From Ruditapes philippinarum (lineage: Eukaryota), in contig NW_026857567.1 in NCBI RefSeq assembly GCF_026571515.1, positions 62,001 to 126,000 of the forward strand: 64,000 nucleotides of DNA, read 5' to 3'. Positions 6,484 through 43,739 of this stretch are shown piece by piece. Position 1 is the first letter of the stretch, and every line of letters starts with the position of its first letter. The translations under genes and the position numbers were made by a program. The notes beneath the pieces are model-generated. The model searched no databases. It had not been told where the DNA came from and saw only the letters and a program-made list of their open reading frames with translations.

Positions 6484-7437
6484 TTGATTGGTCCAAAACA
6501 AAAAGCTGAAAAAGTGAAAATACAGAAGAAAACATTAACACCTGCATCCAAACACAGAAGCAGAAGCTCATCTACTAAGAGAAAAGTATCCTCCCCGGAG
6601 GACAACAGTATTTCTGAAAAGAAATACAGACAGACAGATATTGAGAGTAGTAAAGAATCTGACATACATGAGCATATAGCAAAACCTAGTGACAAAACTT
6701 CTTTAAACTCTAAAATGGAAGGTAGTGACAAAATTGTAGATCAAAATGACAGCATACAATATGGAATGCAAGGTGCTAGTGGAATACATCCTCCCCAGAT
6801 TCAGCCTATGCCCATGCCAATCTTTCCTCAAATGTTTAATTTGGGATCCCCACATATTACCCATCCCATGGTGACATCACCAATGGGATCAGCTGTAGTA
6901 ACTACAAACCTAACTGACCAAGATATTTTGAAAATAGCATCTGTGATTAAAGAAACTTTAAAGGAAGAAATAAATGCAATGGTCACTATGAAAGTCAATG
7001 AATCAACAGCAGAAATGAAAAAAGAAATAATAAATCTAAAAAATCAAATTCATGATCTCCAAATGTCAAATGAAGAAATTCAAAAACATCAAGAAGAAGC
7101 AGAGCAATATAGCAGAAAAAATAGTGTAAGGATAAGTAATGTTCCTGAGCAGAAAGGTGAAAATACAACTGACTTAGTCATAGATGTTGCTAAGAAAACA
7201 GGAGCTGAAGTATCAATGAATGATATTGACAACTGTCATAGAGTAGGCCCCTTTAGTAAAGAAAAAACAAGAGACATTATAGTTAAGTTCACCTCATATA
7301 GAGCAAGAACCCAATTCATCAAAGGTAGAAAATCTCTTAGAGACAAGAAGGAAACTATTTATATAAATGAAGACTTAACAAAGTTCAGATCTGACCTAGC
7401 AAGGGATGCTAGACTTATGACGAAAGACCCATTATGA
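6484..7437 (+). CDS. LINE ORF1 protein (coiled coil plus L1-ORF1/Transposase_22-like RRM), C-terminally truncated
   Basis: 317-aa ORF with coiled coil 'EMKKEIINLKNQIHDLQ' followed by 'EQYSRKNSVRISNVPE...DIDNCHRVG...IIVKF...IYINEDLT', typical of invertebrate CR1/L2 ORF1. True start codon uncertain. Confidence 0.85.
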   Translation: MIGPKQKAEKVKIQKKTLTPASKHRSRSSSTKRKVSSPEDNSISEKKYRQTDIESSKESDIHEHIAKPSDKTSLNSKMEGSDKIVDQNDSIQYGMQGASGIHPPQIQPMPMPIFPQMFNLGSPHITHPMVTSPMGSAVVTTNLTDQDILKIASVIKETLKEEINAMVTMKVNESTAEMKKEIINLKNQIHDLQMSNEEIQKHQEEAEQYSRKNSVRISNVPEQKGENTTDLVIDVAKKTGAEVSMNDIDNCHRVGPFSKEKTRDIIVKFTSYRARTQFIKGRKSLRDKKETIYINEDLTKFRSDLARDARLMTKDPL

Positions 7438-10400
7438 TAAAATCTTAAGCACAAGCAAGTTATATATGTATATAATGATGTACAGTTTGTCAAAAGTTAT
7501 ATGTGTATAATGATGTAGTTGATTCAAGTAAAGAGTATATTCTTTTTAAATATTTTTTATTATATAGTTATTATAGTTTGCAGATATTATAACATACATG
7601 CAATTGTTAATTTATGAAAAGGTAATATATTATAATTATAATAATAATAATTATGAAGATGATGATAGTGGTCTATGATAATGTTTAGTCTTAAAATTTC
7701 ATTTTTCTTAGATACTGTCAATTCTTAATACCTAAATCAAAATATTATTTTACATAACTCAAAGATTAAATATCATTCTTCTTAGATACTGTCAATTCTT
7801 AATACCTATATTCAAAATATTATTTTACATTACACATAGATAAGTTTTTTTTTTGTTGTTTTTTTTTAAACAAACAAGGTAAAGAGAAACTTAGAAGCTA
7901 TATTGAAAAATGTTATGCATAATATTAATTGTTGGTTATAATTTGAGTAATCAAATTTTTTGCATGATATTGGAAGGAATCTAGATATGAATCTAGATAT
8001 TTATCGTAAGAAATTGTAAAAATATCTATAGATTAATCAATTCTCTTTGTAAGATAAACTTTTTGTTAATAACTAAATGCACTTAATGATATATTTTTCT
8101 ATAATTGTATCTTCATGTTATATTTGAGTGTCATTGTACCTTTGCTATTTAGTCTCCTGCATATTCCACATTATTAAAGAATTCACTTATCTATCTTTAA
8201 AATATTGTATATTTATGATTATCACATAAAAAGGTAACTATTCAAATAAAATGGAACTAATAAATATAGATCTTACACAATAAACGACGCTAGTCATTTA
8301 TATAAACACATAGTAACTTAAATATGCCATTCACAATAATACATCAATGAAATTTACACCTCATGCGCGAACTGACCAATGAGAAAATAGGATAAACACT
8401 AGTATTACCGTCATTCCACGAAATTTACTTAATTTTCGGACTTTCATTATGTCAACACATATTATAATTTTGTGCAAAATATACAGTGAAACCATGATAT
8501 AAAGATTTGCAGTTTTATAAACCAGACCGCCAAATGAAATCTGTAACTGAAAATTATATACTACTTATTATCCTGCTCTAATAAATTTACAAGTGGGTAC
8601 TTCTGTTTTTCAAAATTAAACAAAAACAAAACAAAAAACCGCAATAGTACAATGGAACCGAATATATATAAATTTATAAAACCTCTGTTTTATACAATCG
8701 CTGCTTATACACTGCCACTTGTAATTTTTAGCAATCAAGCAATACAGTAGAACCCTGATATATAGTACAATTTAATAGTGTCTTAAGTTTTTACGATTTT
8801 TACTGAATACTTAATATTCTTAACTGGTTTTTACTTTACTTATCGTTTTCACTGACATTTACAATCAACTCGTGAAGATTTTTCTCATTATTAATAAATG
8901 CCCATTTTTCTCCAATTTCCTTTTCTCAATTCAACTCTTTTCATATCGATCTTGTCTTTTCTTTTCAATATAACTCCTTTCAAAATGATCCTGTCCTCCC
9001 TTTTCTTTGGTCACTGTGGTATTTGGAATGCCTCACCGTACTCACTTTTCCACCCCAGTATAACATAATGAATATTGAGATTATGCTTCACAGGGTGAGG
9101 GTAGGTCTATTTTTCGCTGTAAATATGAAAATAAAAGGACTCAATCACTTCACAAACTTCGAATGTATTTGCTGGATGTCAATAATTATCCTTTTATCTG
9201 GTGATGTTCATAAAAATCCAGGGCCCGACAATAACATAACTATCAACTCTACTGCATCAGATGTCCTAATTGATTTCAAAAGCTCAATCTCTTTTGTTCA
9301 CTACAATGTTCAAAGTTTTTTCCACAAAAAAGATATTCTCCAGGGTGAATTGTTTCATTTTGATGTCTTGTCCTTTACCGAAACATGGTTATCAGAAAAT
9401 ATAGAAACGGGATCACTACTTTTTGACGATTTTCGTTCTCCTTTTAGAAGCGATCGTCGCGGAGATAACCATGGAGGTGTACTTGTTTTTGTTAAAAACC
9501 ACATTCCAGTTCACAAAAGAACGGACTTATACAGACCGCCAAACTCTTCTTCACTTGTTATGACAAATATTGATAATTCTATAGGGTTAGCATTTGATAC
9601 TAGTATTGATAATATATTGATCACGGGTGACTTAAATTTAGATATGCTTAAGTCTTCCACAAACACAAAAATAAATAGTATAGCTTCACAATATAACATG
9701 ACATAAGTTATCAATGAGCCAACACACTTTACTGAATCTTTTCATTCTCTTATTGACATCTTTCTTTTATCATCAGCATGCAAGGTGACTTTATTTGGTG
9801 TAGGTGAACCGTTTCTTGCTCAAAATGTAAGGTATCACTGTCCTATCTACTGTTGTTTAAAAGCTTCTATACCCCATCGAAAATGCTTCAAAAGATCTAT
9901 TTGGAAATTCGATCAGGGGGATTATAATAATTTTAAAATTGATGTGTGTACTTTTAATTGGAACTCTCTCTTCCACGAAGATATCAACATTTACGCTTCA
10001 AATGTAACTGATAAAATCTTAAAACTCTCAGAAAAACATATTCCTCATAAATCAATTACAGTTCGGCATTCTGACCCACCTTGGATGCACAATGATCTAA
10101 GAAAATTCATGAGAAAGCGTAAAAGAGCATATGACAGAGCAAAAAGAACACAACAAGAACATCACTGGGACATATACAAACAATTAAGAAATAAAACTAC
10201 TGAACTTCTAAGAAATGCCAAACAAAATTATACGATAAAACTTGCAGAGAAAATAAAAAATGAAAATATAAACTCATCTGACTATTGGAAACTACTTAAA
10301 CAATTTATTACACCATCATCACATAACACTGGAATAAACACGCTTATTGATAATGGTACTCCTATTACATCAGATATTGACAAGGCTAACCTTCTAAATA

Positions 10401-11203
10401 ATTTTTTTCAAACTCAAACCGAGCTAAATGATAACAACAAAGACCTTCCACACATTGAAAACAATCCTGATAGTCCTAAACTTAGTCACATCATTATCAC
10501 CATAGATGAAGTAACCCTTATATTAAAATCTCTAACATTAGGTAAAGCGTTTGGGCCAGATACCGTCAACAACAAAATACTAAAAGAACTTGCTGAAGAA
10601 TTAGCAAATCCTCTTTGTAATCTCTTTAATCGTTCTTCATCTATTGGAAAAAATACCTTCTCAGTGGAAGTTAGCACATGTTTGTGCAGTATTTAAAAAG
10701 AATGACCCTCAAGATGTATCAAATTATAGGCCAATATCTCTTCTTAGCACTATCAGCAAGGTCTTAGAAAATATTGTACACAAACATGTCTTTAATCTCT
10801 TTGTTTCAAACAACTCTATAACCTCTTTACAATCTGGTTTTGTACCTAATGATTCTACTTCAAACCAGCTCGTATGTTGGTAAAGAAGTTCGTGCCGTCT
10901 TCTGTGATATTTCTAAGGCGTTTGATCGTGTATGGCATCGAGGTCTATTGTATAAACTAAAGTTGACTGGTGTAGCAGATCAATTACTTGATTGGTTCTG
11001 TGATTATTTGTCAGAGAGGAAACAGAGAGTCGTACTTCCTGGAGCCATGTCTGATATTATCAATATTTCTTCTGGCGTTCCACAAGGTTCCATCCTTGGT
11101 CCTCTTCATATGCTCCCCGAAAAAATTTCGGGGGAGCATATAGTCGCCGCCTTGTCCGTCCGTCCGTCCGTCTTTCCGTCCGTCCGTCCGTCCCCTTTTC
11201 TTG

Positions 11204-12870
11204 TCCGGGACATAACTTTGAAACAACAAGAGGTATCAACATGAAACTATGTAGGTAGATAGATCTCATTGAGTAGGTGTGCAGTGCACAAGAACCGTAA
11301 CTCTGCCTTGCCTAATTTTTAAATTATTCCCCTTTGTTTATTTTTACACTTTGAACTTTGTCCGGGACATAACTCTAAAAGTATAAGAGGTATCAACATG
11401 AAACTTTGTAGGTAGATAGATCTCATTGCGTAGAAGTGCAGTGCACAAGAACCGTAACTCTGCCTTGCCTAATTTTTGAATTATCCCCCTTTGTTTATTT
11501 TACTCTTTGAACTTTGTCCGGGACATAACTCTAAAAGTATAAAGAGGTATCAACATGAAACTTTGTAGGTAGATAGATCTCATTCAGTAGAAGTGCAGTG
11601 CACAAGAACCGTAACTCTGCCTTGCCTAATTTTTGAATTACCCCCCTTTGTTTATTTTACACCTTGAAATTTGTCCGGGACATAACTCTAAAAATATAAG
11701 AGGCATCAACATGAAACTTTGTAGGTAGATAGATCTCATTCAGTAGAAGTGCAGTGCACAAGAACCGTAACTCTGCCTTGCCTAATTTTTGAATTATCCC
11801 CCTTTGTTTATTTTACACCTTGAAATTTGTCCGGGACATAACTCTAAAAGTATAAAGAGGTATCAACATGAAACTTTGTAGGTAGATAGATCTCATTCAG
11901 TAGAAGTGCAGTGCACAAGAACCGTAACTCTGCCTTGCCTAATTTTTGAATTACCCCCTTTGTTTATTTTACACCTTGAAATTTGTCCGGGACATAACTC
12001 TAAAAATATAAGAGGCATCAACATGAAACTTTGTAGGTAGATAGATTCTCATTCAGTAGAAGTGCAGTGCACAAGAACCGTAAACTCTGCCTTGCCTAAT
12101 TTTTTGAATTATCCCCTTTGTTTATTTTACACTTTGAACTTTGTCCGGGACATAACTCTAAAAGTATAAGAGGTATCAACATGAAACTTTGTAGGTAGAT
12201 AGATCTCATTCAGTAGAAGTGCAGTGCATAAAAACCGTAACTCTGCCTTGCCTAATTTTTGAATTATCCCCCTTTGTTTATTTTTACACTTTGAACTTTG
12301 TCCGGGACATATTTCTTGATGTATAAGAGATATCAACATGAAACTTACAATACCGTCCATGAACGGGCTCAATCAAACCGAGCCTGCAACATTTTCAATT
12401 TTGCCGTGTTGGACTTTCTTTAGGGATTCTGTATTTATCTATTTTGTAGGTAGATAGATCTCATTGAGTAAGTTTGCAGTGCACAAGAACTGTAACACTG
12501 TCTTGCCTACTTCTGGAGTTATTGCCCTTTGTTCATTTTGACACTTTGAACTTTGTCTGGGACATCACTCTAAAATTATAAGAGATATCAACAGGAAACT
12601 TTGTAGATAGATAGGTATCATTGGGTGGAAGTGCAGTGCTTAGGAATCATTACTCTGCCTTGCCTTATTTTGAAGTAATTGCCCTTTGTTTATTTTTACT
12701 TTTTAACTTTTGTCCTGGACATTACTTTAAAACTATTAGAGATATCAACATGAAACTTTGTAGGTAGCTAGATATAATTGGATAGAACTGCAACGCTTCA
12801 AGAACTTAAACAAAGCCTGGTCTAATTTTGGAGTTATTGCCCTTTGTTCATTTTTTTATACTTTCCTGTG
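11204..12870 (+). repeat. Tandem array of 10 x ~157-bp units inside the HINE
   Basis: Unit anchor TCCGGGACAT (degenerate in the last two units) at 11204, 11361, 11517, 11674, 11830, 11986, 12144, 12301, 12556 and 12713. Unit 8 carries a ~98-bp insertion. Confidence 0.95.
12347..12443 (+). mobile_element. Truncated terminal fragment of the unclassified ~510-bp structured repeat
   Basis: Interrupts AAACTT|TGTAGG of a satellite unit. Near-identical to the reverse complement of ~19290-19385 and homologous to ~57465-57560. Confidence 0.85.
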
Positions 12871-15800
12871 TCCAGAACCTTCTCGGGGAGCATCACCCGG
12901 TTCAACCGGTTCTTGTTTTTCTTGTCTATATCAATGATGTTGTTTGTGATATAAATTCCACTATTAGACTATTTGCTGATGATACAAGCTTGTATATAAT
13001 TGTTGAAAATCCGATAACAGCTGCGAATATTTTGAGCAATGATCTGGATAAAGTCACTAATTGGGCAAATAAATGGCTGGTTACATTCAACCCAAATAAA
13101 ACTGAATCATTATTAATTTCTCGAAAAGTTACTAAGCCTATCCACCCCCTCTAGAAATGAATGGTACTCAAATATCGGAAGTCATAACTCACAAACATCT
13201 TGGTGTTACTTTTTCAAATGACGGCACTTGGAATCATCATATTGACACTATCAAAGTAAAAGCATGGCAACGAATCAACGTCATGAGAAAATTAAAATTT
13301 ATTCTTGATAGAAAATCTCTAGAAATCATATATATTACGTTTATAAGACCACTTCTTGAATACTCAGATGTCGTATGGGACAACATAACAATACATCAGG
13401 AATATGAAATTGAGAAAATACAGCTTGAAGCTTGTAGAATTATCACTGGGGCCACTAAACTTGTTTCTATCTCAAACTTATACACAGAAACTGGATTTGA
13501 ACCGCTTAAAATCAGAAGAAAAAATCATAGACTTACTTTATTTTATAAGATGAAAAACAACATAACTCCGTCGTATTTATCCAATTTAGTCCCTGATAAT
13601 GTTGGCGATACTACTACATATAATCTCCGCAATTCTGCCAATTCTAGAATTATACACTGCAACACCCAACTTTATTCAAATTCTTTTCTCCCACTTACTG
13701 TCTCTGAATGGAATCAACTCCCAAATGACTATAGAAGTTCTTCATCCTTAAGTATTTTTAAAAGCAAGTTTAACTCAAATTCACAAAAGATCCCGAAGTA
13801 CTATTATATTGGCTCGAGAACTGATCAAGTTTATCACACACGACTTAGGACCCATTGTAGTTCACTAAAGGAGCATTTATTTTCAAAAAATATTATAGAC
13901 AGCCCTCTCTGTGAATGTGGGGACACGTGTCATTACTTTTTTAAGTGTCCACGCTTTAATACACAGCGTGCTGAACTTCTTGACAATTTACGAAATTTGG
14001 CAACAGACAACCTATCTATACTCCTATTCGGTGATGCCAATCTCTCATGCAAAATAATTTTCTTTCATTATGGTAATAATGCACTGGAGTATGCATGCAG
14101 ACGCTTTAAATAACAAGTCATATATATGAACTTGAAATGTTAATTGAATATGGAATCTGGATTATCTTGTTTATCTATGCGATTAAGATACTTTGTAATA
14201 AACTCACAAGGTATTACGCAAGTAAGGGCGCTCTTCATTTCGTTTCGTAAGAGTTACATTATCTTGCTTCCATAGCCTCTGTCTTTTGTGTTTCCTTATT
14301 ATATGCTATAATAATAATAGCATATTGTCACTAGGAAACTTATTACTACATTACTTATAAAGAAATCATTTAAAGTGTCAAAACTTATATAATTATAATA
14401 ATAAAAAAAAAATTCTAGTAATATTCTTAAATAGGACCTACACTTTCCATTATATTACAGTGACCCCCCCCCCCTTTACTCCACTTTTTGTCTCTATTCT
14501 GATCTCTTTTTTTCTTCTTCTTTTGTCTATTTATCTCCCTTTCCCCCATGTCGAGAACTATTTAAATTTGATACAGGCATTGCATTACACACTTGACATG
14601 TTCAGCTCCTCATTATAATCCTTTACAAAGTAGTAGGTATTTATTATTTTCTTGTAATATATGGAAGGAATTAAATGCAGGTACAATGAACTTTTGCTAT
14701 GTCATGTTGTTACTAAAATAAATTGTAGATATGTTTTTTTACAGGAGAGAGTTTCATATAAGCTGCAAGCTTTCTATATGTACTCGATCCTGAATGAAAT
14801 TTATATATTGTAATATTGACTATAAATATTGATGAAGAAATAAATATTGTTTAAACCAAGAATATAACCAGTTATGCATGGAATATATAATTTCTTTGGC
14901 CCGTCCAATTTGACAGAGAATTTTTGAAAAATTGGTTCAGTTCATATTATCATATTTTGTGTATTTTACAAATGGTAATTGACAGACATGGGATTGAACT
15001 TATTACATGAAATAAAAGATTGATGTTTTATAATAGTAATTTAAAGATGAATACTAGAAAAAATACAAATGTTTCTTTACAGCAAAGGTATGAGGCAATT
15101 CCGCCACGCATTATCTATTTAAGAAAAAAGTAAACATTTACAATGACAAACTGACATTAAGATGTCTGATGATACAAACTGGTTCAGTGTCCAATTAGAA
15201 ATTGAGAACTTGTTTTCTGCATCAAAGCATGTAATGTTTATGAATGTTTATTCAGATATATTCAAGGATGATCAGAATCGAAAGTATATTATACCTTTAG
15301 ATCAGTCTTTTGTGTAGTATTTTCATAATGAAGTATTAAGTTTTTTTGTATCAGTGTATTAAATACGATAATGTATATTAACAGTAATTGACAAGCTATT
15401 ATGCATTGTGCATACGCGACTTGATCATACAATTTTTATCAAAATTATATATTAAATTGACAGACATTTGATTGGTATTTTTAACTTGTCATGGAACTCT
15501 TAAGTTGTTTTTTAAACAAAAGTTTAGCTAGTTTAAGGTTAAACAAGCAAGCATATTACTAACTTAAAGTCGTCGACGTCTTCAGTTTCATACAAGCTTC
15601 TCCTCACTCCCAGTACTTCAGTATCAGACATGAAACCATTTTACCGTTATTCGATTTACCATGCATGTATACAGAAATAAACGTAAAGCAAATATTTGGT
15701 GTGTCATTTATAAAGCAATTATAGTAAACGGATTATTTATAATACATGTAATAGGTTTTACTTTTTAGCTAAATTGATTGACCACGACAGATAAAGATAT

Positions 15801-17261
15801 TTATTACAAACATTAAATTTGAATGGAACATAGATTCAGGAAGTCGATAACCAGGAAATATATTTCAACATTATTAAGCATGATTTAAACACGTCATATC
15901 CGTATAACATTTTTGTAAGCTCTTCAGACAGACAACAGATAAGGTTCTGCACAGTCATCTATTTCTTCCTGACGCAGACGCGCTAATGACACTCAATCGT
16001 TGAAAGGTTTAGTTGAATGGCAAAATAATTGTCAAATATTTAACATAATAATGATAAATAAAAAACAGATAGCTGAAAACCAACTTTTAGTTAACAATAT
16101 TTATCTCTTAATAAGAATATTCATAATGGAAATGAAATCTATTTGAAATGATATCCTATAAAATTCGTTCAAATTTATTATTGCAAAAATGCAAATAATG
16201 CACTAAATTTAGCTCTCTTAAAGAAATCATCCTTAAAAAACTGAATAACTGAATTAGGGAGAAATTCGTGTCATGGAGTACGCAGGTTTAATATATAGGT
16301 TTTACTTGTTAGAAGTGAGAAGAAGGTGGAAAAACAGACCCAAAATATATACTTCAATACATTTATAAAAATTTAATGATACGTATACCTTTATCAAATA
16401 TTAAATTATTTGCCTGTCATAATTAAACTTTTACCTATACATTTTTATCTGAAGATTTAAAAGGGGTATTCTAGTAAATCAAGTATGTACATCAGAATGT
16501 ATGCTCAACTAAACCTTTTCATGTACATCTATCGAATCGATCACCTTAAAGAATATTATCTGCTTGCCTTCTTATAATTTCCCTTAAATACCATTTTATA
16601 TCCCGATGACGATATTGGCAGACATGATTGAGTAATTTCAAGTAAATGGATTGATAATCAAGACAGAAGTACACTAATTGGAAATGACAAAGTTGGTCAA
16701 AAGCATGTCGAGTTAATATACCGATGAGGTTATATGAATTGGCTTGATACTTGATATAGAATTGACTTAGCTTCATTGATTTCAATAACTGTGGTTATCT
16801 CACAATGATAAACTTACATGTTGTCTGTCAAATATACTTGAAGGGAAACAAATCTGAATTTGTTTTTGCACATATCTATACAATTGTGTAATGAAATGAT
16901 TGTCAAATATGATAATGATTTTTTTTTGTATTGCATCTTTTCTGGTTGACTTATTCTTTTGAACTGAATAAGGAATACTAAAGTCATTCAAATAGTAGAT
17001 GAATACTGTGGCTATTTCGAAACTGATCATGTATAAGATATAAAATAAAGCAAATTTGTTCGAAAACGTATAGAAGACATCATAAATGTGGTATAATATA
17101 CATCTAAATCTGACAGCGTACCTTGTTAAATATCGGAAATAAAATGCTTTCAAATAGAGAAAGTGTTTGTCATCTTACATCAAGTCATTTGTAGTCATTT
17201 ATATCCGGATTGAAAGTCAAATTATTTAGTAGTACATACAGCTTCAGGACTGCTATTTAAA

Positions 17262-17480
17262 ATAAAATAGAAGTAAATAAGATACACATCTATGTTTACT
17301 TGAAAACAAAAACATTCCCATTTAAGACTTCCGTGTTCAAGTAAAAGGAAGTAAACAAGATGCACATCTATGTTAAATAAAAAAGAGAAACACTCCCTTA
17401 TACTAATGGCATTTAAACGTAAAATGGATATAAACAATATCTACATCTTTCCTAACTAGAAAACAGAAACACTCCCTTTT
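17262..17480. repeat. Degenerate tandem repeat, 3 x ~78 bp
   Basis: GAAGTAAA(T/C)AAGAT(A/G)CACATCTATG...AAACA(T/C)TCCC-like unit recurs near 17270, 17349 and 17427. Confidence 0.7.
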
Positions 17481-19254
17481 ATTGTAGCTTAAAACCTTAC
17501 AAGTGTTAATGGGCAAGAGATCAAATCGCTTGATTGAAAGTAAGGTAAGTTTTTCGATCGGAGAGTGGCCGGCTACTGGGCAATTTTCTCGGAGAGTGGA
17601 ACGAGAATGTGGTCGTTTTCTTTCTCGCTTTATCTTCACATATGAGGTCTGTCAGACATCTATAGCACAATGGAGAATACCTTCAGACGGAATGACGCTT
17701 GTTACATTTTTGTTTTTATTTTACGACGTCATTAACGTCAATTAGTGTGTTATTAGCGTACCTCTTGTCAAATGAAATACACACAGACTCGTTTTTTTTA
17801 AACATATTTTATTGAATTTTCCGCTGTATATAGAGGATATTTTTGGATATTATTATCTCGATAAATTGTGAAATCGTAAAAAATTTGAACAGTAGACCTG
17901 CAGTCCTACTTCTTTTCAAACAACCATCGTATTAAGCATATCATAAAATGACCCTTTTCGTTTGTTTAATGCTAAGGTGTTATGTTTTTCATGTCACGTG
18001 CTTATACAGAAACAAAAACAAAAAAGATGGGGAAAAAACAACTGAAAACGTACTTTCTGGGACAATTAAAATCCTTGAAAGATATCAAGCGGTTATTATT
18101 TATTACTCTCTCTTATGTCGAGAGTAAATCAATTATTCTCTAATCTGCTATAGCAGGAAACAACAACAAATACATAGGAATAACGCTTAATATTTGGTAG
18201 TACATACTACAAATCAATAGAATCAATCGGTATTTATATGTATCTGTTATGTTCTTGTATTTGGGATTCATCAGATGTATAGCATTGTTGCTGTATCCGA
18301 AACTCTGAAACGAAACTAAAACAGATCTGAATACGTGGTTACAAAATATTACAAACAGAATAATATTGTGTAATCTGTAAAATATTAAATAACAAGTTAT
18401 GTTCATTAAAACAAAGAAAATTCATTAAATTATGCAACTTTAATAAGTTATATTTCAAGAAAAGATTTTTTTTTTGAGTGTCATGTGAAGAATGATGACA
18501 AAAGCCTAAATATTCAGCAAGAATGTGTATTAAAATACTTCATCGCAAAAACGTTTGTTGTAAGAAGGGATGGGGTCGGGTGGGGCGTATTTAAACAGGT
18601 TATTTGAGTACCACCAAATGCAAGCGTCGAGTGAAGAAAAACCGCGAAAACACTATATATATACCCCACTAACCCAAGAAATACACGTGCACCGTTAAAT
18701 GAAATTATTTAAGGTTTCACTCCATATTTAACTTAAGGTACAGAAACCATACATAAACACTCATTCAAGCTATATCCGATACGAGAATAATTTCATTTAG
18801 GATTAATTCTTTAATATTGAATATAAAGAGATAGTGATTGGTTAATGATTTAAAATTTTATATTCGATATTCAATATAAAAAAAGTATCAGACTGAAATG
18901 TTTTAAATATTTTATTTTCATCCTGATTATATTAAAAAAATAATGTTTATTTAAAACCATGTTTTTTTGTTCCTTGAAACAAACACATTTCAATAGAAAA
19001 GTAAAGATAACATAACTTTATACTTCGAAAACCTTATGTCTCTTATTTGTTTGCAGCCGTAGGCTGCATGAAAGGCACCTGCCTTCACTTTGTTTATATG
19101 CTTATCGTCTCTGTTTGTCGAAGTGTATCTTAGTTTACTTACTTAAAGATAAAACTTGTATTCATTAAAATGAGAATTTAAATAAGAAATAGTTTCTCTT
19201 TCAGTTATCACATATTTCCCATATTATCAGCTTTCTATCAAACTACAAGTTTCG

Positions 19255-20036
19255 CGGGTGGTCCTTGGCCGAGTAGTTGACTTCAAAAAAATAGAAAAAT
19301 ACAGAATCCCTAAAGAAAGCTCAACACGGCAAAATTGAAAATGTTGCAGGCTCGGTTTGATTGAGCCAGTTCATGGACGGCACTGGAAAATGCAAGTTAC
19401 CGTCCACGCTCCCTAGCACCCACTGAAGCAGAATTCAACATTTAACACGAAAATAGTGAAATTTTGAATTTAGAAACATCCGCAGATGTTTTCATACGGC
19501 GGTTATCATGGAAACTTCAATGTGACACGTCCGTGCCATTCCATGAAAAGCGGCGTATGGTCCCCAAGTAATAAAAAGCGTGTGCCCTAAACGAGAAAAC
19601 AATGAGCGGAACTAAATAAAATGGAATTTTGAAAGGGGATCAGAGGTTATGAAGCCTGCGTATCACAGATAAGGCGTCAAAATACAAATTTAAAAAGCAG
19701 GCAACATATCCTAAGGTTGATTCAAATTATTCAAGTAGGAACCACCAAACTAGAAAATTCCGAAAAGTTGAAACTAAAAATACCACAAGCGCAAGCCACC
19801 ATTTGCCCCTCACAGCTGTGCGAACAAATCCAAAGACGGAATTTGGATTCTTTCATGTCAGGAAGCTATCTAGCTAGCTTACGGAATGTCGGTGGTTCTA
19901 ATCGTGTGTCGGTTCGTGTCTGTAATAATGCGCGGAATTGCACCTGCGGCCTCACTTCATCAGTCAAGCTGGAAACGTTGTCATATGTCCAATACTGTGT
20001 CGGTGTGACGAAAAACCTAATTTAACAAATAAACAA
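19255..20036 (+). mobile_element. tRNA-derived SINE (bivalve Meta-type, tentative), interrupted by a ~510-bp insertion
   Basis: A-box-like TGGCCGAGTAG; body GAAGCTATCTAGCTAGCTTACGGAATGTCGGTGGTTCTA; (CAAA)n tail; near-TSD ACAAGT(T/A)TCG at 19245-19254 and 20037-20046. Confidence 0.8.
19286..19792 (-). mobile_element. Unclassified ~510-bp hairpin-rich interspersed repeat inserted in the SINE head
   Basis: Colinear along its length with the reverse complement of 57046-57560. Separates the SINE A-box region from its B-box region. Strand is an arbitrary convention (T-rich end taken as 3'). Confidence 0.85.
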
Positions 20037-21248
20037 ACAAGTATCGTGTCACAAGACACACACAAATCTAACCACTTAGATAAATGTATTAATAGTAAAG
20101 TTTTTAAATGTTTTTATGAAGTGTTTACATTCAAACAACATTGAATTGCAAGTTGTTCCCTTATGCATGCCTTGTTTTAGGATTATCATGTTTTATGAAA
20201 TACGTACTCCATAAAACCTAAAATACGACCAATACATCAAGATTCACGAGCTAAATGTATTGTAAAAATTCGATGTAATGTAAAAAAATCTGAAATCTGA
20301 AAATCTGAAGCAAATCATTCAGATTGGTTTAAAATGAAGGCAATTGATCCCAAGTTAGTTATTTAGATACATTATTGCTTCACTTCACAAATCTTGTCAA
20401 AGACGTCGGTAGTTCTCGGGAAAAGAAATAAATAATCACCAAACATTTCTTTACATATAATCTTTTTCTACAGAAATAGTTTATTACGATTAAGATTCAA
20501 ATACCATTTGAAGGGTACATGTATTATAAAAGACAAATTTATTATCTGCGTTTACCATTAATTCAACATTTCTGTTAAGGTTATATATTTTATATGACCA
20601 TTTTATTTCATTGTATTAACTAAACATCATTCTCTTATTACACTTTAGGTATACGATGACATGATCTCGAACATTTGAAAAAAAAAATGTTCGTCGCTCC
20701 ATTATCTAGAGGCATTTCGCTGTTTGATATATGTGACCATTTAGATAACATAACGTGGTGGTTATCCTGTACGTTTGTGGAGCTATTTAATAATTTCAGT
20801 AAAAGACTTCATCACAGAAATTATGAACAATTTTAATATCATGTGAGTGTTCGGTGCCAATAAGAAACACCAAATTAATTAAAAAACAGATAAATACAAA
20901 ATTATATAAATAAAAAAGACTGAATAAGTTTTAGAAGTAATCCTTTCTGGCCTTTTCTGACAAATGATTTATAAAAGGAAACCGTTACTGTTATAATCTT
21001 CCTTGTTTGCAAATTGACTTAAATTTCGCCTTCAACAGTGACGTTGAGCATACTTATTAATATAAATTTACCATTTTACATCAACTAATTTCAGATACAT
21101 TGAAAAGAAGCACATCACATTTATTTCAGGTTCATTTCGAACATTTAACAAAACAATACAAGAAGAAAAGTAATGGCTAAAATTTATATACATTTACGTT
21201 AGTGATCATGAACTGGCTAAAAAATGTTAAATAGCATAATTTACTTAA

Positions 21249-22666
21249 AGAGGTACTTCCATGGTTTATAAATAAAAATGAACATGAGCAGTTTTCATTC
21301 AGTTTTATGACATTTGTGTCAATTACAGTTAAACACATGATGTATATAATTTTTCGATACGACGTACAATCATGTTAATTTATAAATATAAAGTCTAATT
21401 AAAATATTAAGTTCAATTGCTGGAACAGAGAAATAATAACCCTTAGCCATGCAATTTTCTCTGCGATAAATAAGTGTATACATAATTTATTTAACTCATT
21501 TCTAACAAATAATGTGGGAAGATGATCCATTTTGTTATTCAATAGAGAAAAAAATAATTTCAGATTTTTTTTACATATTTCAGTTCATCAAAAAAGTTTG
21601 ATCGGTTAATTTTAGGAGCGGGATTTAGGCGCCTTGCTTTCTATGGTTGACAAAAAATATTTTAATATCTACTACAAAATCTAATGATCCAATTCATTTG
21701 TCGAAATATTCCATGAAAATGAATTAAAATGAGATTCACCATCAAAACACAAGGTTATCATGATAAAATACCTCAATATTAAAAGAGGAAAATGCCATAA
21801 TATTTGAGTTTTAAAGAAATTTAGTCCATACTGCAAGTGTTGACAAAAAGCGTTTAACCGTTTGCGGAGATTTTTCTACTGATTCAGTTAATGTGACCAA
21901 TTATTCAGATAAAATATAATAAAATGAGTAATCAATCGAAAATCATTGATGTTTTCCAGGCATTGTGTCATAATATCAGCTTTTACGCAGAATTTCGCCA
22001 AATTTTGAAGTGTGTTAGTTCAAGCAATTGAAAAAGTCGGGCTTGGGTAGAGTAGGATTCATTGAAGCGTGAAAATTATTATCAATCCATTCGATTTCGT
22101 TGAAAGTTTAATAGATTAGCTCACATTAATTGATACATTATTTGGCCCTCGTGACGTTTCATGTTTGTCAAAAAAGGAGTAAATATTGCGTTTGTGTAGG
22201 AATACGTAAAGAAGTGCTGCACGTGGAGTGTAATATAAGCCCCTGTTTGTAAGATTTTCCCACACCGCTATTTTGTAACATTACATTTTCTATGTGGTAA
22301 GTGAAAATAATTCAATCGTAATTTTACAAAAAGGAAACTTTTCCAAATGTTATGTTTTATGTGACATACATATACATGTATCTGCATACTGTTCCCCTTC
22401 TTTATTTAAAGCTATGTTAAACATTTACTTAATCATGCAAGATTTCGCATATTAAGGCAGACATCTCAAACACGGTGAAATAGCTAAAATATCATGCAAT
22501 TACGCTTTTATATAATCTAACTATGAAATGAAAGGGGAAGTACGTTATCTCTGACGACACCTAGCCCCGATATGCACGGTACATGATGACACGAAAATAA
22601 AAAGAATGAATATACCGAAGGACAAAAAAAAAAATCAAACAGTACTGAAACATCGTACGGACCTCT
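21249..22666. mobile_element. Non-autonomous Kolobok-like DNA transposon
   Basis: TTAA at 21245-21248 and 22667-22670 flanking imperfect TIRs AGAGGTACTTCCATGGTTT / AAACATCGTACGGACCTCT. Purine-purine ends with a TTAA TSD are Kolobok hallmarks. No ORF. Confidence 0.7.
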
Positions 22667-23084
22667 TTAAAATAAGCTTGACACTGTTTGGCGAATTTCA
22701 CAATTATTTTGAATGTAACTCAAATGCATAGCAACTTATACATAATATCAGATATAATACAAGTCTTCCTTTCCGACAGATTTTACTTCAACAGTTCTTT
22801 AAAATAACGGAAGCATTTTGACAATTGAACACTTATGTACATGTTTTTAAGTATATCCGTTAAGATGCCGATACGTTGTTCCTGGCGATTTAAAGCTTGT
22901 ATGAATCTTTAAAGGTATCAATGCACAAATATTACCAATAGAGAGAACTGTAATATTTTTATATAATTACAATGTAAAATATTGTTCGCCATTCTAATAA
23001 ATGTTTTAAAATGTAAATAGATGAGGAAGTATTAGATACTTTATCTTTCGTTATGAAGTGTTGATATTAATTTTAATATACCAA

Positions 23085-24400
23085 CACTTACTGACGTGTG
23101 CAAAACTATTCTGAATTGATCATGAAATATATTTTCTGGTGACTGATTAAAATGGCTAAATTTCTGAATCCAAAATAAAAAAAAAAACAATCAAATATCT
23201 GTCTATTGAAACTAACGACATAATTGTGATTATTTAGTTCGTATATGCACAAAGGGATATGTTTTGTTAATACATGTTATAAGTTGCAGAAGTTAATACA
23301 CTAGTGCACGAATTGGGGGAAAACTAAATTCTACCAATAGAAAAAATAACATGGAAGAAGGATATAATATGCCGTGTAAGATTTTGTTTCATTTGCCTAG
23401 AAAGCCTCTGAATAAAAACTTCATAAACATTACTTGATTTTGATGTTTACAAGTTATCTATGGTCGTGTGGGTACTAAACCAATTTGTGTCATCAGACAG
23501 TTTAATGTCTCTCAATACATAATGTGTGATCAAATTGTCAGACATATTTGATGTATACGAAGAAACATTTGAGCCGCGTCATCACAAAACCAACACAATG
23601 GGTTTGCGACAAACATGGTCCGCGCAGTCTGATCAGGATCCTTGCTTTTTGCTTACAAGCCTTATAGCAAGTAGAGAAACTGATAGCGAACAGCATGAAT
23701 CCTGATCAGACTGCGCGGATGCGCAGGCTGGTCTGGATCAATACTGGTCGCAAATGCACTATGTGAGTTTTGACCTGACGTGGCTCAATTTTGTGTAATT
23801 ATTTGTTTCAGTAGTCATCTTTAAATAAGTACAAAATACCAATTTCATATCAATAGGTTCATATCCATTTAACCATAAATTATATGCCTACATAACGGCA
23901 AACATACATCAGCAATAATAAACCAAGAATTGCAAAATTGCAAAATTGAAAATCTTAAGTATGAACAACTACATAACTGAATTAGGCAAGAATGGGTAAT
24001 ATCATGAAAACAGCTGTTATAGAGCTTTGACATGTTGTTTTACTTGTGAGGATAACAAACAAACTAAAAACGGACCTAAAATAGGGAATTGTAGACGAAT
24101 AAAGAAGCACAGTTGTACGAAAAAACCTTATAGATGCTGTTATATTTATTCATTCAAATCCGGCAGTGGACCTCATTGTATTATTTCATTAAGTGGAGGA
24201 AGTGTTTGTCATCAAACATCATGAGTCAATTATATCTCACTTGACGGTTGATTGTTTTTGCAGTACAGACAAGTAAACAAGATCCACCTCATTATATGTT
24301 AATATGAATACAGAAATAATAATTTTTATGACTGATATTTTAAAGTAAATGAAAATAAACAAGTTCCACATTTAACTTTATTAGAATACAGTAACACACC
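23085..24400 (+). pseudogene. Decayed LRR/TLR relic (paralogue of 5782-17230)
   Basis: DNA matches to that relic: TACTGACGTGTG (23089 vs 5888), ATAACTGAATTAGG (23973 vs 16245), TTTTACTTGT...AAAAAC.GACC.AAAATA (~24038 vs ~16300). LRRs 'KYLSIETNDII' and 'KLKILSMNNYITELGKNG'. Confidence 0.5.
23571..23786. mobile_element. Palindromic MITE with GAG...CTC ends (Sola-like, tentative)
   Basis: TIR GAGCCGCGTCA / TGACGTGGCTC; internal inverted repeat TCCGCGCAGTCTGATCAGGAT / ATCCTGATCAGACTGCGCGGA; flanks ATTT / AATT; the left arm has a deletion. Confidence 0.75.
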
Positions 24401-24573
24401 CTTTTATTTTTCTTGGCACTCGTACACGTGTTTACGGGCAAGATTACAAAATCGATAAATACGAAAATAATGTTGTTTTGAAATCGTCAGTAAGCTTAAT
24501 ATCATGAACATAAACTTTTATTTTGATTGGGTGTAATGTTGATGTTTTTGTTCTTGTTTTTTTTTCTATTTTT

Positions 24574-25010
24574 GTGCCCCCACGTTAGTGGCGGGCATTT
24601 AGATTTACCCTTGTCCGTCGGTCCGTCCGTCTGTCCTTCCGTCCGTCCGTCCGTTCACTTTTGTGTCGCACGTAACTCAAAAAGTATTTGACCTAGAGTC
24701 ATGTAACTTTACAGGAATATTGATCAGCATGTGCAGTTGTGCACCAGGTATTTTCGTCTGGATTTATTTAGTATTTTTAGAGTTATTGCCCATCACTTAG
24801 AAAATTTTTGCAATTTTCAACTTGTGTCGCAAGGATTTGACATAGTCATTAAACCTTATGGGCAGGTTGCTCAGCATATTTTAGATTTGCACCTGGGGTT
24901 TCGCTTGTGGATTTATCCAGTATTTGTAGAGTTATTTCCCTTGACTTAGTAATAAGATTGACAGAACAGTGGCGTGGTGGGGGCACCGTGTCCTATGGAC
25001 ACATTTCTAG
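24574..25010 (+). mobile_element. HINE-type non-autonomous element, family 2
   Basis: subTIRs GTGCCCCCAC (24574) / GTGGGGGCAC (24977), 5' stem-loop, (CCGT)n, about 2 internal units, 3' hairpin GTGTCC-TAT-GGACAC, end TTCTAG in a T-run. Confidence 0.85.
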
Positions 25011-25588
25011 TTTTTATTTCCATGAGCTTTTAACTATTATCTAATGTCATCTTTATAAATCAAAAAGAAACAACCAAAATTAAATCCATATTTTCTAGGA
25101 CAATTTCAGTCCTTAAAAGTATATCGAACAGTTATCAGCGTTATTGTTCTTTAATACTGATTATAAGAAGATAGTGATGGGTTGATCATTCAAAAGTTTG
25201 ATATTCGATCTTCAATCCTACACATGTTTTTAGTTAATCTATTTTTTTTGCATACGAACTATACTTAAAGATCATTGTGCATTTTGAACAACACGAGTTG
25301 AAAATGGTTCATTGAAATAAACCCTTTTAAATAGAAAAGTTATTAAAGTAATCCAGAACTTCTTAAAACTTAACTTTCTAATCGGTGTGTTGTCTACACT
25401 GCATGAATGGCATCTGCCTTTGTTTTGTGTAATATTTTTTCGTTCTTGTTTAGTTTCTTATAGAAAGATCGAAATTGTAGAAAGTCTTTATACAGGAAAA
25501 TTTAAATTTAAATTTAATGCATACTCTTTTTACAATAATCACAGATTTCCCATAGTGTCATCAGCTACCTCTTAATGTACAGATATTG

Positions 25589-25870
25589 TTTGTGTGTTTG
25601 ATTGTTTTGGGTTTTACGTCACATCGACACAGGTCATATTGGCAATCCGACGTTCCGGCTTTATTGGTGGAGGAAGACGTCAGGTGCCCTTCCGTGCATT
25701 ATTTCATGCACGAACGGGCATCTGAGTAGACATACTGACGTTCCGTAAAATAGCTAGATAGCTTCCTCACATGAAATAATCCAAGTCCCTGTCAAGATTC
25801 GAACCCACAGTGGTGAGGGGCAGGTGGTTTCAAGTGAACCACCTTAACGTCTAGGCCACGGACGGCCCAC
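25589..25870 (-). mobile_element. tRNA-derived SINE, same family as 19255-20036, full length
   Basis: Minus strand: GGGCCGTCCGTGGCCTAG head, B box GGTTCGAATC, shared body, CAAA-type tail. Near-TSD GTACAG(A/G)TATTG at 25577-25588 and 25871-25882. Confidence 0.88.
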
Positions 25871-27248
25871 GTACAGGTATTGAGTTGATAGACACATACA
25901 AATGTGCACATTTACATAAAAACCATTTGTCAATTACATTAACATTACACAGCATTAGTTTTCAATGCTTGGACAAACTTGTAACTTTAAAAACCACCAA
26001 AAGTTGCATGTCGTTTCCTTACTGTATGCCTTGTTTTAGGATTATCATGCTCTATCAAATACTTACTCCATAAAACCTAAATAAACTTCGTTCATATCAT
26101 GATTCCCACATCAGGTGTATCGTAAAATCTGTATCAAATGCAATAAATGTTCTGTAAATCTGATTAGTATCACACAGAATGTTCCAAAGTAAAGGAAATT
26201 GATCCCAAGTGTGTTTTTGCCTATTTTATAGCGTTTTTGCGACTTGCTAACTATACAACCCTGTTCACAGGCATCAGTGATTCTCGGGAAAGGAAAAAAA
26301 CAACAATACGGAACTGTTCTTTTATATGAAATCTTTCCTGCATAAATTCAGTAAAGTATGATTCATATATTAATATATATGAATCATACTTTATATAATA
26401 TATAATTCATATAATAAGCGTATTATTACAAACATATATATTTTGCGTAAATCACTTATTCAACATTTTGTCATTGTTAACGAAATTTTATGTCAACATT
26501 TTATTCCTTTTTATTAAAAAAAGATATATAACTCTTATGACACTGTGTAGATACTAACGACTTGTCCTCGAACCTAACAAAAATCAAAAGTGTGATCAAA
26601 AAGTGATATTTGATACTATAAGAAGAATCAATTATACCGAAAGACCAACAATTCAAACAATACTGACAAAACATATGTGAAAACTTTGACGATTTATTCA
26701 ATTATGTATAACATGGAAGTGATTTATAAAATAATGAATTGCCAGAGATAATACCAAATATATTTCATGCATTTACAAAAAAGTATAGCAATAAAAATTA
26801 AATATCACATTAACACATGACTACATTTTTGAAGTTATATCAACTGTACTTATATACATCAGCATAAAATGTAAGGCCATGGAATCTCAATTCACAAATG
26901 GAGATCCCTACACTAAGTCTTATTAAAACAAACATTACATGTTTTTATGTACGTGAGTTTAAGTAACAATCGGTTATTCTTCTCTGCAAATGATAATTAT
27001 TGAGACCATCTGAGACAGACATGGCCTTGCAAAACACGTGGTAAGATAATAAAGAATTTTCCTTGCATAAACAGAAAACTCTTAAAGTAATACAAATGTC
27101 AATGAAAATTACACCTATGATGTATCTTCACACCTTTATTGACATTAAGTATTCTTATATTTTAGGGTAAGAACATAGAAGGTTTCCAAACATTTAAGGA
27201 AATTGATATCTTGTATAGTTTGTATACAGTTACATGAAGTTTGTTTTA

Positions 27249-32279: not shown

Positions 32280-34200
32280 GGAGCTCTAATCAGTATGTAA
32301 TATTTAAAGTTAAAAAATTCAATTTTATTCGATACCTGTTCATTTTTATAAAGACGGACATAAACAAATTCGATAGCTATGGCACATAATTTCAGGCTAC
32401 TGCTAGAATTAATAATGGCGTTTCAACAGAATTTAGTCGCAGAAATTCTCATAAGGAGATGCGCCCGTTGGACTTAAAATCACTCATTCTGCCAAGGAAC
32501 TTAAACCTCGGTTACTATCTTAAATGTCTGAACGGTGTGTCTGGATAATTAAAATTCTTGTTCCCTCGCCGATATGCCTGGTCTGAAGTTGTCATTTGCT
32601 TAACAATACCATAAGTACTAATGTCTTATTTATCAAACAAATATTGGACAAGACATGAAAAAAGAACACATCTTAACCTAATGCAAATTTGTTTTTAGTC
32701 AGAATACCTATACGCACACACTACATATAATTCTAATATATGAATAGGGATAATGCTATTTATAGTGAGGATTAAGAGGGGTCCTTCTGGGCTCCTTGCC
32801 ACTTGTTCTTGTTGCTGGGTCGTGTGGGGGTTGCGTTCATTGCGCCGCCTTTCCTTGTTGATCTTGTTTATCATAATTTGGTTTTGTAACCCTCAATCAG
32901 TACAATTCCAGAGAGCTCTCTTAATTAACGTTTATATTTGATATTTCCTTTCTATTTCATTCAAATAGAGGATATAATGAAAGTTTTAACTTAAGCTTTA
33001 TTTTGAGTGATGATTGTGCCCTCCTCTGTCCCGTTAAGTGTCCTGTAGTTGCGTGTGTGTTTGGATTATGTAGACGCTGCATGGCATGAACGTTGCATTT
33101 TCATAATAAAAGCTCGGTGTCAGGGATTGTTGTGTTGTATAGTTTCCATTAAATTAACAGACAGATATATCAAACGACAGTTTTTTATCACACAAAAGCC
33201 GATTTGTAATACACTGGAGATTATTTGTGTCTTGAAAATGGTTTGTTATACATGACAGTGTAAAAATTGTTAATCAGTCTGGCATAGATGTACCTTAACA
33301 TCTATAAGCGAAATCCAATGAAAAAGCTGTCAACTTCAAAATGAGATTCAGTTCTAGGAAACGTTATTTCCAAGAAAATTAAGTAAATGATTATAGTTAT
33401 CAAAATGACAATGTGACAATGTTAGTTCTGTATATTTTTGTGATTAAATGTAAGAATATATGGAAAAGCTAAAGTGATTTCCCTTTTTATTCACTTATAG
33501 TCTTTAACAAACAGAAAAATTGAATTTCTATAGAACTCCCAGAGCGACAAAATCGAATATGAAACATGCTCGATTTGATTGACACAAACTAAATGTTTCT
33601 AAATAGTAATGTTCCCTGGAACGTCTCTCTACCTATGAGAAATTGTAAGACACATAACAGTTCTTGCATGCACATGTCTTACGCTATTAGAACATCAAAT
33701 AAGTGTAAAACTTATGAGCTAGTATTAGTATCATAAAACAAACGTGAACACAAACTACAGGATAACGATGTGTGGACCTATGCAATGGTGTGCATATATT
33801 TTTTTAAAATATAAAAGACTTGGCACACGTCAGCATTTATATTATCTGTCAAGAAGCGTACGCAATACAGTGCGTAATAACACATTACTATAATGCTCTG
33901 TATGTTAGTACACGTAACACTTACGCAATCTGAGAATTTTATCAATGTGTACTATGGATGAGGTGTGTTGTTTAATGTTTCAAAATCCGGAAAGAATGTG
34001 ATGTGATCTCTCGGAAGCATTAATCTAACAAAAATACCATAACATGCTAATTGTAGAGTTTTATTTTGTGATAAAATAGGATGGCATTGATTCAATACTT
34101 CACAACAGCAGGTGGCAAGTGCCGTGTGACAGTTTAAAAAATTACACCCGTACTTCATTTCAGTGTTGTTATATTTTCTGGTCATTCGGGATCATTGATG
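32280..34200 (-). pseudogene. Decayed TLR relic on the minus strand
   Basis: Cys-rich LRRNT-like segment and 'RLMLPRDHITFFPDFETLNN' (ORF 33952-34185); 'IGRETFQG / LETFSLC / NQIEHVSYSIL' (~33560-33640); LRRCT 'LFHWISLIDVKV...LHC' (~33250-33330); TIR 'YC*ANDNFRPGISAREQ...AHLL...NAII' (FRPG at 32576-32587). Confidence 0.6.
32803..32880 (-). mobile_element. 3'-terminal fragment of a non-LTR retrotransposon (same family as 60237-60820)
   Basis: ~75 bp closely matching 60238-60312; minus strand ends CACACGACCCAGCAACAAGAACAAG. May extend further 5'. Confidence 0.55.
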
Positions 34201-38485: not shown

Positions 38486-38987
38486 TGGTACTTGTAAAAG
38501 AAAAATAACAGATAGAAATGTAAAACTGAGAGAGTCCCTTTTAGACAAGGTGGCAGCCACCTTTCTAACGACATTTTGACCTCAAGAAAAACCTTCGTAT
38601 AAGAGCTACCCAGTGGAACATCAAATGCTGTGTTTTATTGAGAATGAGCGATACACGTTGGCGTTATTTCAATGTAATACATCTTTGATTACAACAGCGT
38701 TGTCAGTAAAAATCTCATCAACAAAAAACGTAACAGAGTCTGTAAAAATAATTTAGTATGCATTAAAGAAAGCGGTATTACAGAAAAGTGTAAAGACAAA
38801 TTATGTTTTATATTTATCTTCTCGTAAAAGAATTGGCTGCCAGACGGTAAATAAGCACCCACATAGTATGTTTTAGAAAATAAATGAGAAACTATTCAGG
38901 AAACGAGCTTAAGTTTGATTAGACAGAGTATTCTTATGACGGGGTATTATTTCATGAACTGTACAACTAAGAAAAAGTGTCATAACC

Positions 38988-42434: not shown

Positions 42435-42660
42435 ATCTACTAGCCCCTCATCGCTGTTGGTTCGAGTCCCGTCAGTGACTTTGTATTCTTATGTAAGAAT
42501 TATAAAGAGGAAGATAGTCAGTAAGCTTACGGAACCTCGCTGATTATATTCTGGTTCCCTTTCGTGCATGAATAATACTTAGAGGAGCTTCACCAGTAAA
42601 ACTGCAAAGTCGTCAGATGTCCATTACGGAGTTTTTGCCACGTAAACTTCAACAATAAAT
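42435..42660 (+). mobile_element. Old degenerate copy of the Meta-type tRNA SINE
   Basis: GCCCCTCATCGCTGTTGGTTCGAGTCCC (B box), GAGGAAG...GCTTACGGAAC, CACCAGTAAAACTG and CGTAAAC match the family. Confidence 0.7.
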
Positions 42661-43012: not shown

Positions 43013-43268
43013 TGAAATTCACCTAAAACTCTGAAACCATCAAAATTATTGCCCTTGCTTGAATTCAAGCATATAAACCCAATGTCCCTAACTGATTTTC
43101 AGGACAGTCGTGACAGATATTTGTTATTTTATTAATGATATGAAATTCACCTAAAACTCTGAAACCATCAAAATTATTGCCCTTGCTTGAATTCAAGCAT
43201 ATAAACCCAATGTCCCTAACTGATATTCAGGACAGTCGTGACAGATATTTGTTATTTTATTAATGATA
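43013..43268. repeat. Recent 128-bp tandem duplication
   Basis: 43013-43140 versus 43141-43268; one substitution seen (TGATTTTC vs TGATATTC). Confidence 0.95.
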
Positions 43269-43739
43269 TCAATGTTTCCAAATAGTGTTTATAATGCAAA
43301 AGTTGATTAAGTTTAACTACGTTTGACGCATCAGTTGACCCACCATGCGATTCATTTGAAACATATTCATCCTTTAAAACTTCTTCTTATCGGAACATTC
43401 GTGTATTAATACCAACGGCATTAAGCTATCATAAAAAGCTCCTCAGGTGAATCACCATGAACTACTTTTTGTATTTCATTCGAAAAGGCCAGTTTGAAAT
43501 AACAAGCTGCATTTACCCGAAATTTATCTTTTTATCAATAATTACATGAATTATTAACTTAAATATGTTAGAATCGAAAACGTGTCTGAACATTTGAAGA
43601 AATGTAACGAAAAAAATAAAATTAAATTTGAAACGTTGGTAAAAAAAATTACAACAGCCCTATAACAAAAGTCTATTAAATCTATTCAAGCGCACTTGAT
43701 TTTGGCTTTGTTACTTCTTACATAGGACCATCGAAACAA

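Follow-up and report, generated by a model that had tools for sequence, protein, structure and literature searches.

Two BivaV-SINE1-type SINEs in opposite orientations at one site of an old tandem duplication in Ruditapes philippinarum: a very probable case of independent insertion

How can two short interspersed elements (SINEs) of one family come to lie at the same site of two duplicated segments and point in opposite directions? The question is raised by a 64,000-nucleotide stretch of Ruditapes philippinarum DNA (assembly GCF_026571515.1, contig NW_026857567.1, positions 62,001 to 126,000 of the forward strand), here called the window, which is repeat-rich, has a composition of 31% G+C, and whose positions are counted from its first letter. 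Two segments of the window, D1 and D2, each carry a SINE of the BivaV-SINE1 type bounded by a target-site duplication (TSD), on the + strand in D1 and on the − strand in D2. A first-pass annotation, made from the letters alone, had offered two explanations, namely two independent insertions that used nearly the same pair of cuts, or one SINE inverted precisely between its TSDs. Our results allow us to conclude that the two SINEs were very probably inserted independently, all ways of independent insertion being taken together. The particular course of events that we consider probable is that both insertions followed the duplication and fell at a site loosely, not strictly, favoured by the partner long interspersed element (LINE).

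The duplication itself is old. D1, its first copy (17041-20690), consists of the blocks 17041-17637, 17954-18105, 18807-19254 and 20037-20690, as found by nhmmer tiling, blastn and nhmmer, and D2, its second copy (24098-26593), consists of the blocks 24098-24566, 25002-25146, 25147-25588 and 25871-26593, as found by nhmmer tiling. The tiling showed that the two copies are collinear, with separate later insertions in each, and that the homology noticed earlier is real and reaches farther upstream than had been reported. Near the SINE site, D1 and D2 are about 71% identical (flank identities 0.715-0.717), with nhmmer E-values of 1.1e-23 upstream and 4.1e-39 downstream of the SINEs. A formal alignment without the SINEs bore out the claimed homology on both sides: the global alignment scores of the flanks were 306.6 and 456.7 vs. 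61.1 ± 13.9 and 87.8 ± 12.1 for shuffled sequences (30 shuffles each). Outside the TSDs, an offset of 0 was the best of 13, matching 12 of 18 positions upstream and 16 of 26 downstream, whereas the remaining 12 offsets reached at most 8/18 and 12/26, respectively. When the SINEs were removed, both empty sites fell inside a single gap-free alignment block of 69 columns. The SINE-free bins around the D1 site had a low read depth, the flanks being low-copy at 80% likeness.

The segments had been called paralogues, which is right in the sense of duplicated DNA; neither a gene nor a protein could be recognised in them. A Pfam scan of 24 stop-masked frames of D1/D2 gave zero families above the cut-off, homologue and atlas searches with both segments returned no usable protein match, and no codon periodicity was found in their alignment, where gap lengths were divisible by 3 in 8 of 37 cases. 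D1 and D2 are therefore treated here as non-coding or long-decayed DNA. The tiling revealed no third paralogue within the 64-kb window. Upstream of both duplication units, the block 15065-15480 is homologous, in inverted orientation, to 23572-23182, which is adjoined by a high-copy palindromic element (23562-23796); the pair represents either a segment of the unit that became inverted in one of the copies or a dispersed repeat of old age.

Both SINEs, their strands, TSDs and flank motifs were present exactly where the first-pass annotation had put them. The D1 SINE (+) has an overall span of 19255-20036 and is disrupted in two ways, by a deletion of 9 nt and by a nested element that the first-pass annotation had not mentioned. 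Its 5′ part (19255-19287, +) is the tRNA-derived head with the deletion, as seen in the alignment and by eye against the published consensus, and the rest (19795-20036, +) comprises the body, the V domain and a tail ending in a degenerate (AAAC)n, and matches the D2 SINE with an nhmmer E-value of 3e-32. On the left lies the TSD copy ACAAGTTTCG (19245-19254, +; 10 bp), which has one mismatch to the right copy ACAAGTATCG (20037-20046, +), the first 4 nt of the latter agreeing with the tail repeat. The D2 SINE (25589-25870, −) is a full-length copy of 282 nt, assigned to the BivaV-SINE1 type by a match to the published primer and by eye to the consensus; its folding gives a z of −3.3. Its left TSD copy, GTACAGATATTG (25577-25588, +; 12 bp), again differs by one mismatch from the right copy, GTACAGGTATTG (25871-25882, +), and its first 3 nt, read on the SINE strand, agree with the tail repeat. 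The TSDs quoted earlier were thus exact for the right-hand copies and one mismatch off for the left ones. The earlier statement that both TSDs end at the same aligned base holds to within ±1 nt: the ends coincide to 0-1 nt, since the last TSD base G may alternatively be the first base of the D1 SINE, and the starts lie 2 nt apart.

Was there one insertion or two? The sorting of the TSD copies by paralogue provides an internal test of independence. Two TSD positions separate the paralogues: the D1 copies both read A and C there, and the D2 copies both read G and T. The quartet likelihood ratio of two later insertions vs. one earlier insertion was 2.0-99.9 over 18 parameter settings, and the free maximum-likelihood value was −27.9 for the two-insertion topology vs. 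−32.0 for both alternatives. In addition, the right TSD of D2 contains 2 extra bases, which agree with the flank to the left of the D2 SINE and have no duplicate in D1. Calibrated by simulation, the flanks have diverged by about 0.42 substitutions per site and the SINE bodies by about 0.30; by these values, the SINEs appear to postdate the duplication. Among the 40 of 600 differences from the read majority that were listed, 8 lay inside the SINEs, and all 8 were private in gap-free register. Such a star-like pattern rules out an insertion that preceded the duplication by a long time; it would still agree with one that took place immediately before. The D1 SINE is apparently older than the D2 SINE, the difference being not significant (p 0.14, by-eye counts). 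Taken together, the TSD likelihoods, the calibrated divergence and the extra D2 bases support the earlier suggestion of two independent insertions with nearly the same cut pair.

The opposite orientations could be followed in read-derived contigs. In a survey of 24 sequencing runs, at least half of the sampled words were found only in the four runs of sample S1. Four runs were aligned to the region at 80% likeness, and of the runs with small shares of the words, only X21 and X24 were taken as evidence; the statements below refer to the 16 of 120,803 contig pieces and the 15 of 2,079 joints that were listed. The D1 right junction is bridged by an X1 contig (19940-21806) and the D2 left junction by another (25112-25624), which reaches 36 nt into the SINE tail, both with 0 differences, and the D1 left junction by an X5 contig (18907-19326), in which 19 letters differ and 7 gaps occur over a length of 423. 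X5 comes from a separate study, and X1 may be the source sample of the window. Three of the four junctions are thus bridged; the fourth, D2 right, is absent among the pieces listed. The X1 contigs tie the SINE tail to the D1 right flank and to the D2 left flank, and therefore the opposite orientations, as first annotated, are fixed. No SINE-skipping joint occurred among those listed, raw-read flank depth being below 1 in most bins. In the region 18500-27200, the share of the sampled words present in other samples under the same species label is no more than 0.07-0.10, and the flank depth of two raw-read runs is near 0.3-0.4; low coverage or presence/absence variation may account for these values.

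A local misassembly that flipped a collapsed repeat might be suspected, given that the SINE is a high-copy repeat and that neither the D2 right junction nor a span of the whole SINE is among the pieces listed. Such an artefact is extremely unlikely in view of the zero-difference contigs at D1 right and D2 left, the confirmation of the D1 left junction by a second sample, the separate TSD of each copy and a divergence sufficient for uniqueness. A precise inversion between the TSDs, the other option left by the first-pass annotation, is unlikely as well. It would require that one insertion took place just before the duplication and that one of the two resulting SINEs was inverted later. This inversion is best pictured as a replication template switch through a TTG that occurs both at the end of the left TSD and in the reversed tail and that gives microhomology at the D2 left junction. 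The uncalibrated identity of the SINEs (0.749) is close to that of the flanks, one non-majority base is common to both SINEs (25756 and its D1 counterpart), and a block nearby lies in opposite orientations beside the two units, all of which would fit this course of events. However, the TSD core aligns between the paralogues at 6-8 of 10 positions directly and at 4-5 of 10 as the reverse complement, thus indicating that it was not inverted. Because the core keeps its orientation in both paralogues, the two breakpoints of an inversion would have to coincide with the inner edges of the TSDs; a crossover inside the palindromic TSD or in outer inverted repeats was considered and is ruled out by core orientation and spacing. 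Direct repeats, moreover, favour deletion over inversion. The TSD copies group by paralogue, not by side, and the two extra bases of the D2 right TSD occur only in the left flank; a template switch leaves both the paralogue-specific bases and the extra ones unexplained. Nothing relevant to precise SINE inversion was found in the literature, with limited coverage of subscription papers. Altogether, we regard an inversion of an inherited SINE as very unlikely.

To which family do the SINEs belong, and which machinery may have moved them? By eye, the head, the V domain, the internal hairpin region and the (AAAC)-type tail of both follow the Ruditapes BivaV-SINE1 consensus (PMC4824008), from which D1 differs by about 45 and D2 by about 31 substitutions in by-eye counts. 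In comparison with that consensus, both present copies are decayed, and D1 is interrupted. A metagenome scan gave two matches, L001 and L002, which represent one homologous locus of a related V-SINE on marine contigs; no further SINE copies were found in the viral contigs or prokaryote genomes scanned. Four consensus substitutions are common to the D1 and D2 SINEs (by eye), and three of them are also present in other published consensuses, L001/L002 or the read majority. The published BivaV-SINE1 primer has one match, at 25656-25675 in the D2 SINE, with 2 mismatches (0.01 expected by chance). Both SINEs possess a tRNA-derived head with RNA polymerase III boxes (by-eye consensus match; alignment with L001/L002), a central V domain (primer match in D2; by-eye consensus match of both copies), and an (AAAC)/(AAAAC)-type 3′ repeat together with TSDs of 10 and 12 bp; the TSDs of bivalve SINEs range from 6 to 18 bp (PMC11481361). 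ARAGORN and Rfam gave no tRNA or RNA match in the window, as expected for decayed SINE heads.

In run X21, the read depth was about 6,500 in the D2 SINE bin and about 2,100 in the D1 SINE bin vs. about 0.3 in 12 single-copy-like bins; the SINE is therefore high-copy, with a family size of roughly 5,000-27,000 copies at a likeness of at least 80%, varying with the assumed single-copy depth. A third, strongly decayed copy of the same family lies at 42437-42652 (+); a TSD was looked for around it and was not found. As for the machinery, a Nimb LINE partner is listed for the cross-species family BivaV-SINE1_RuDe (PMC11481361, Suppl. Table 2). The family assignment points to a venerid clam as the likely host. 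We found no report of a target preference or repeated insertion for BivaV-SINE1 in the literature.

Why, then, the same site? The zebrafish element Nimb-2_DR, introduced in chicken cells, produced TSDs of 10-15 bp in 21 of 30 inserts, with a peak near 12 bp, and 3′ microhomology of at least 2 nt in 24 of 30, usually 2-6 nt (PMC4245944). Both sites studied here are similar in their TSDs of 10 and 12 bp and short 3′ microhomology of 4 and 3 nt, a combination that is not unique to Nimb; the published table gives positions without target sequences. Presumably, priming in D1 started at the ACAA end, from a nick in the bottom strand, and the D2 event used a nick in the top strand at the TTG end. These ends lie about 10-12 bp apart, and each of them, read on its own strand, agrees with the (CAAA)n tail; the second cut of each event would thus have been made at or beside the first cut of the other. 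If the spacing of the cuts is nearly fixed, two events whose first nicks fall 10-12 bp apart on opposite strands would yield nearly the same TSD. Because each second cut meets the first cut of the other event, the shared TSD would present one coincidence, not two.

This coincidence was assessed by simulation. With one copy per segment and uniform insertion, TSD ends at most 2 nt apart combined with opposite orientation arose in 0.088% of trials. Tail microhomology on both strands was rejected as its cause: the opposite-orientation overlap stayed at 0.085% in both weighted models, while overlaps in the same orientation rose under the weighting from 0.09% to 0.13-0.22%. Likewise, a cruciform was rejected, the D2 empty site being able to fold and the D1 site forming only a small, different hairpin; the D2 fold is among the lowest 2-5% of segment windows, but its p is 0.09-0.40 vs. 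dinucleotide shuffles. At a density of one copy per 21-250 kb, the uniform chance is 4e-6 to 4e-5 per copy in the duplicated segment. Since it is so low, some site preference is likely; a chance case from a scan of many windows is also possible.

How strict could such a preference be? For the case of two independent insertions, the first-pass annotation had deduced a strong target specificity, which we do not find borne out. One form of it would be a two-fold symmetric recognition, with both nicks made at a CAA-N3-TTG-like site in either orientation. This would fit the low uniform chance just given, CAA and TTG do face each other at the site, the TSD of the related V-SINE in L002 (13/14 match) contains ACAAGT like the D1 site, and of the 11 TSDs published for a scallop SINE whose tail is related (PMC4758252), one, TCAACTATTGT, resembles the D1/D2 site by eye. 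However, the 11 scallop TSDs, as printed, have no common consensus, and the 30 de novo inserts of Nimb-2_DR went to 30 different loci (PMC4245944). The ACAAGT of L002 is out of register with either cut, is found in about 1% of the window 14-mers, and its likeness was noticed after the fact. Moreover, CAA-N3-TTG occurs 38 times in the window, a third, full match to the proposed motif (32330-32339) is without a SINE of the BivaV-SINE1-type family, and this family has thousands of copies. Strong symmetric recognition is thus rather unlikely, and only with considerable doubt do we suggest that the clam Nimb/V-SINE machinery might recognise a two-fold symmetric target that dictates where both nicks are made, whichever way the incoming RNA is oriented, so that one staggered cut could be reused both ways. 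At the other end stand independent insertions with zero site preference, which would make the locus a rare chance event found by scanning very many windows. The abundance of the family, the single coincidence left by a near-fixed TSD length, and the failure to find a special structure or a unique motif at the site would all agree with this. Pure chance is nevertheless distinctly unlikely, given a uniform probability of 2e-8 to 2e-6 per 1-kb paralogous pair and given that uneven, hot-spot insertion is the rule in mammals where measured (PMC4084570, PMC2836564).

Several observations weigh against the reading that we prefer, in which the SINEs were inserted independently, later than the duplication, into a loosely favoured site. 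The topology test rests on only 10 TSD columns, the likelihood ratio drops to about 2 when the SINEs are given almost the age of the duplication, and the age gap between flanks and SINEs is only about 1.6-2.3 standard deviations. The base common to both SINEs at 25756 and the inverted block near the duplication count here as well. Tail microhomology brought no gain in opposite-orientation coincidence, and the site hairpin is not common to both paralogues. Neither an empty allele nor a third, empty paralogue was seen, with flank depth too low to call alleles. Finally, the Nimb partner is an assignment taken from a paper on a related family.

Repeated insertion of SINEs at one site has been described in mammals. 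The CanSINE locus 133135 of cats received four independent insertions with overlapping TSDs, one of them reversed (PMC4084570). This hot spot is like D1/D2 in its overlapping TSDs at a homologous site with one copy reversed, but it involves orthologues across species, the L1 machinery and a TTAAAA-type motif, whereas D1 and D2 are paralogues of a single genome, and no motif is known for the Nimb partner reported for their SINE. In whales, precise parallel SINE insertions, the homoplasious class, amount to 0.18-0.29%, and one opposite-orientation case was classed as non-homoplasious, being distinguishable from shared descent (PMC10531181). The whale cases share with D1/D2 a TSD shift of 0-3 nt and one opposite orientation; with 0-1 nt at one end and 2 nt at the other, our pair falls under the definition used there (homologous sites with a TSD shift not above 3 nt). 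They differ in that they concern mammalian L1-dependent SINEs between lineages, with a measured rate. Multi-copy human repeats resemble D1/D2 in that insertion recurred at the same position of homologous copies in one genome, at hot spots that often have no recognisable canonical motif (PMC2836564). There, thousands of events were treated statistically, whereas here n = 2; in the same source, Alu preferences are mostly orientation-specific, and the quoted example of insertion in both orientations is a DNA transposon. No repeated same-site SINE insertion in bivalves or with Nimb was found in print, within a limited coverage of subscription papers. D1/D2 would accordingly be a clean case of repeated same-site SINE insertion outside mammals, in paralogues of one genome and with a reported Nimb partner.

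For SINE insertions as markers, the first-pass annotation had seen in this locus a threat of homoplasy. The threat is weak: reverse-orientation cases from cats and whales are already published, and, because the opposite orientation exposes the D1/D2 case, SINE markers are little weakened. The pair is a detectable case, not marker homoplasy. Second-strand cleavage is not well understood (PMC4245944), and a symmetric target that sets both nicks, if true, would offer a genome-scale natural read-out of this step in LINEs of the apurinic/apyrimidinic endonuclease (APE) type.

Other elements of the window deserve a brief description. The element nested in the D1 SINE head (19288-19794, +) is high-copy, with a depth above 10,000 and loose ends at 19288 and 19794; further copies lie at 57057-57559 and 12345-12445, and, since family reads run beyond 19794, the D1 copy is truncated at that point. 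It contains a conserved internal hairpin (19493-19559). A broken LINE with Pfam matches to endonuclease and reverse transcriptase (6475-14113) is split at about 11150-12855 by an element that combines a GTCC microsatellite with a 157-bp array and in turn carries the nested-element copy at 12345-12445. A short relative is present inside D2 at about 24577-25000. A second broken LINE with a reverse transcriptase domain occupies 38958-41102. The G+C-rich segment 30036-30960, with its many short direct and inverted repeats, is foldback-like. At 43013-43269, a 128-bp unit occurs twice, head-to-tail, with 99% identity, which reflects either a recent tandem duplication or an assembly artefact.

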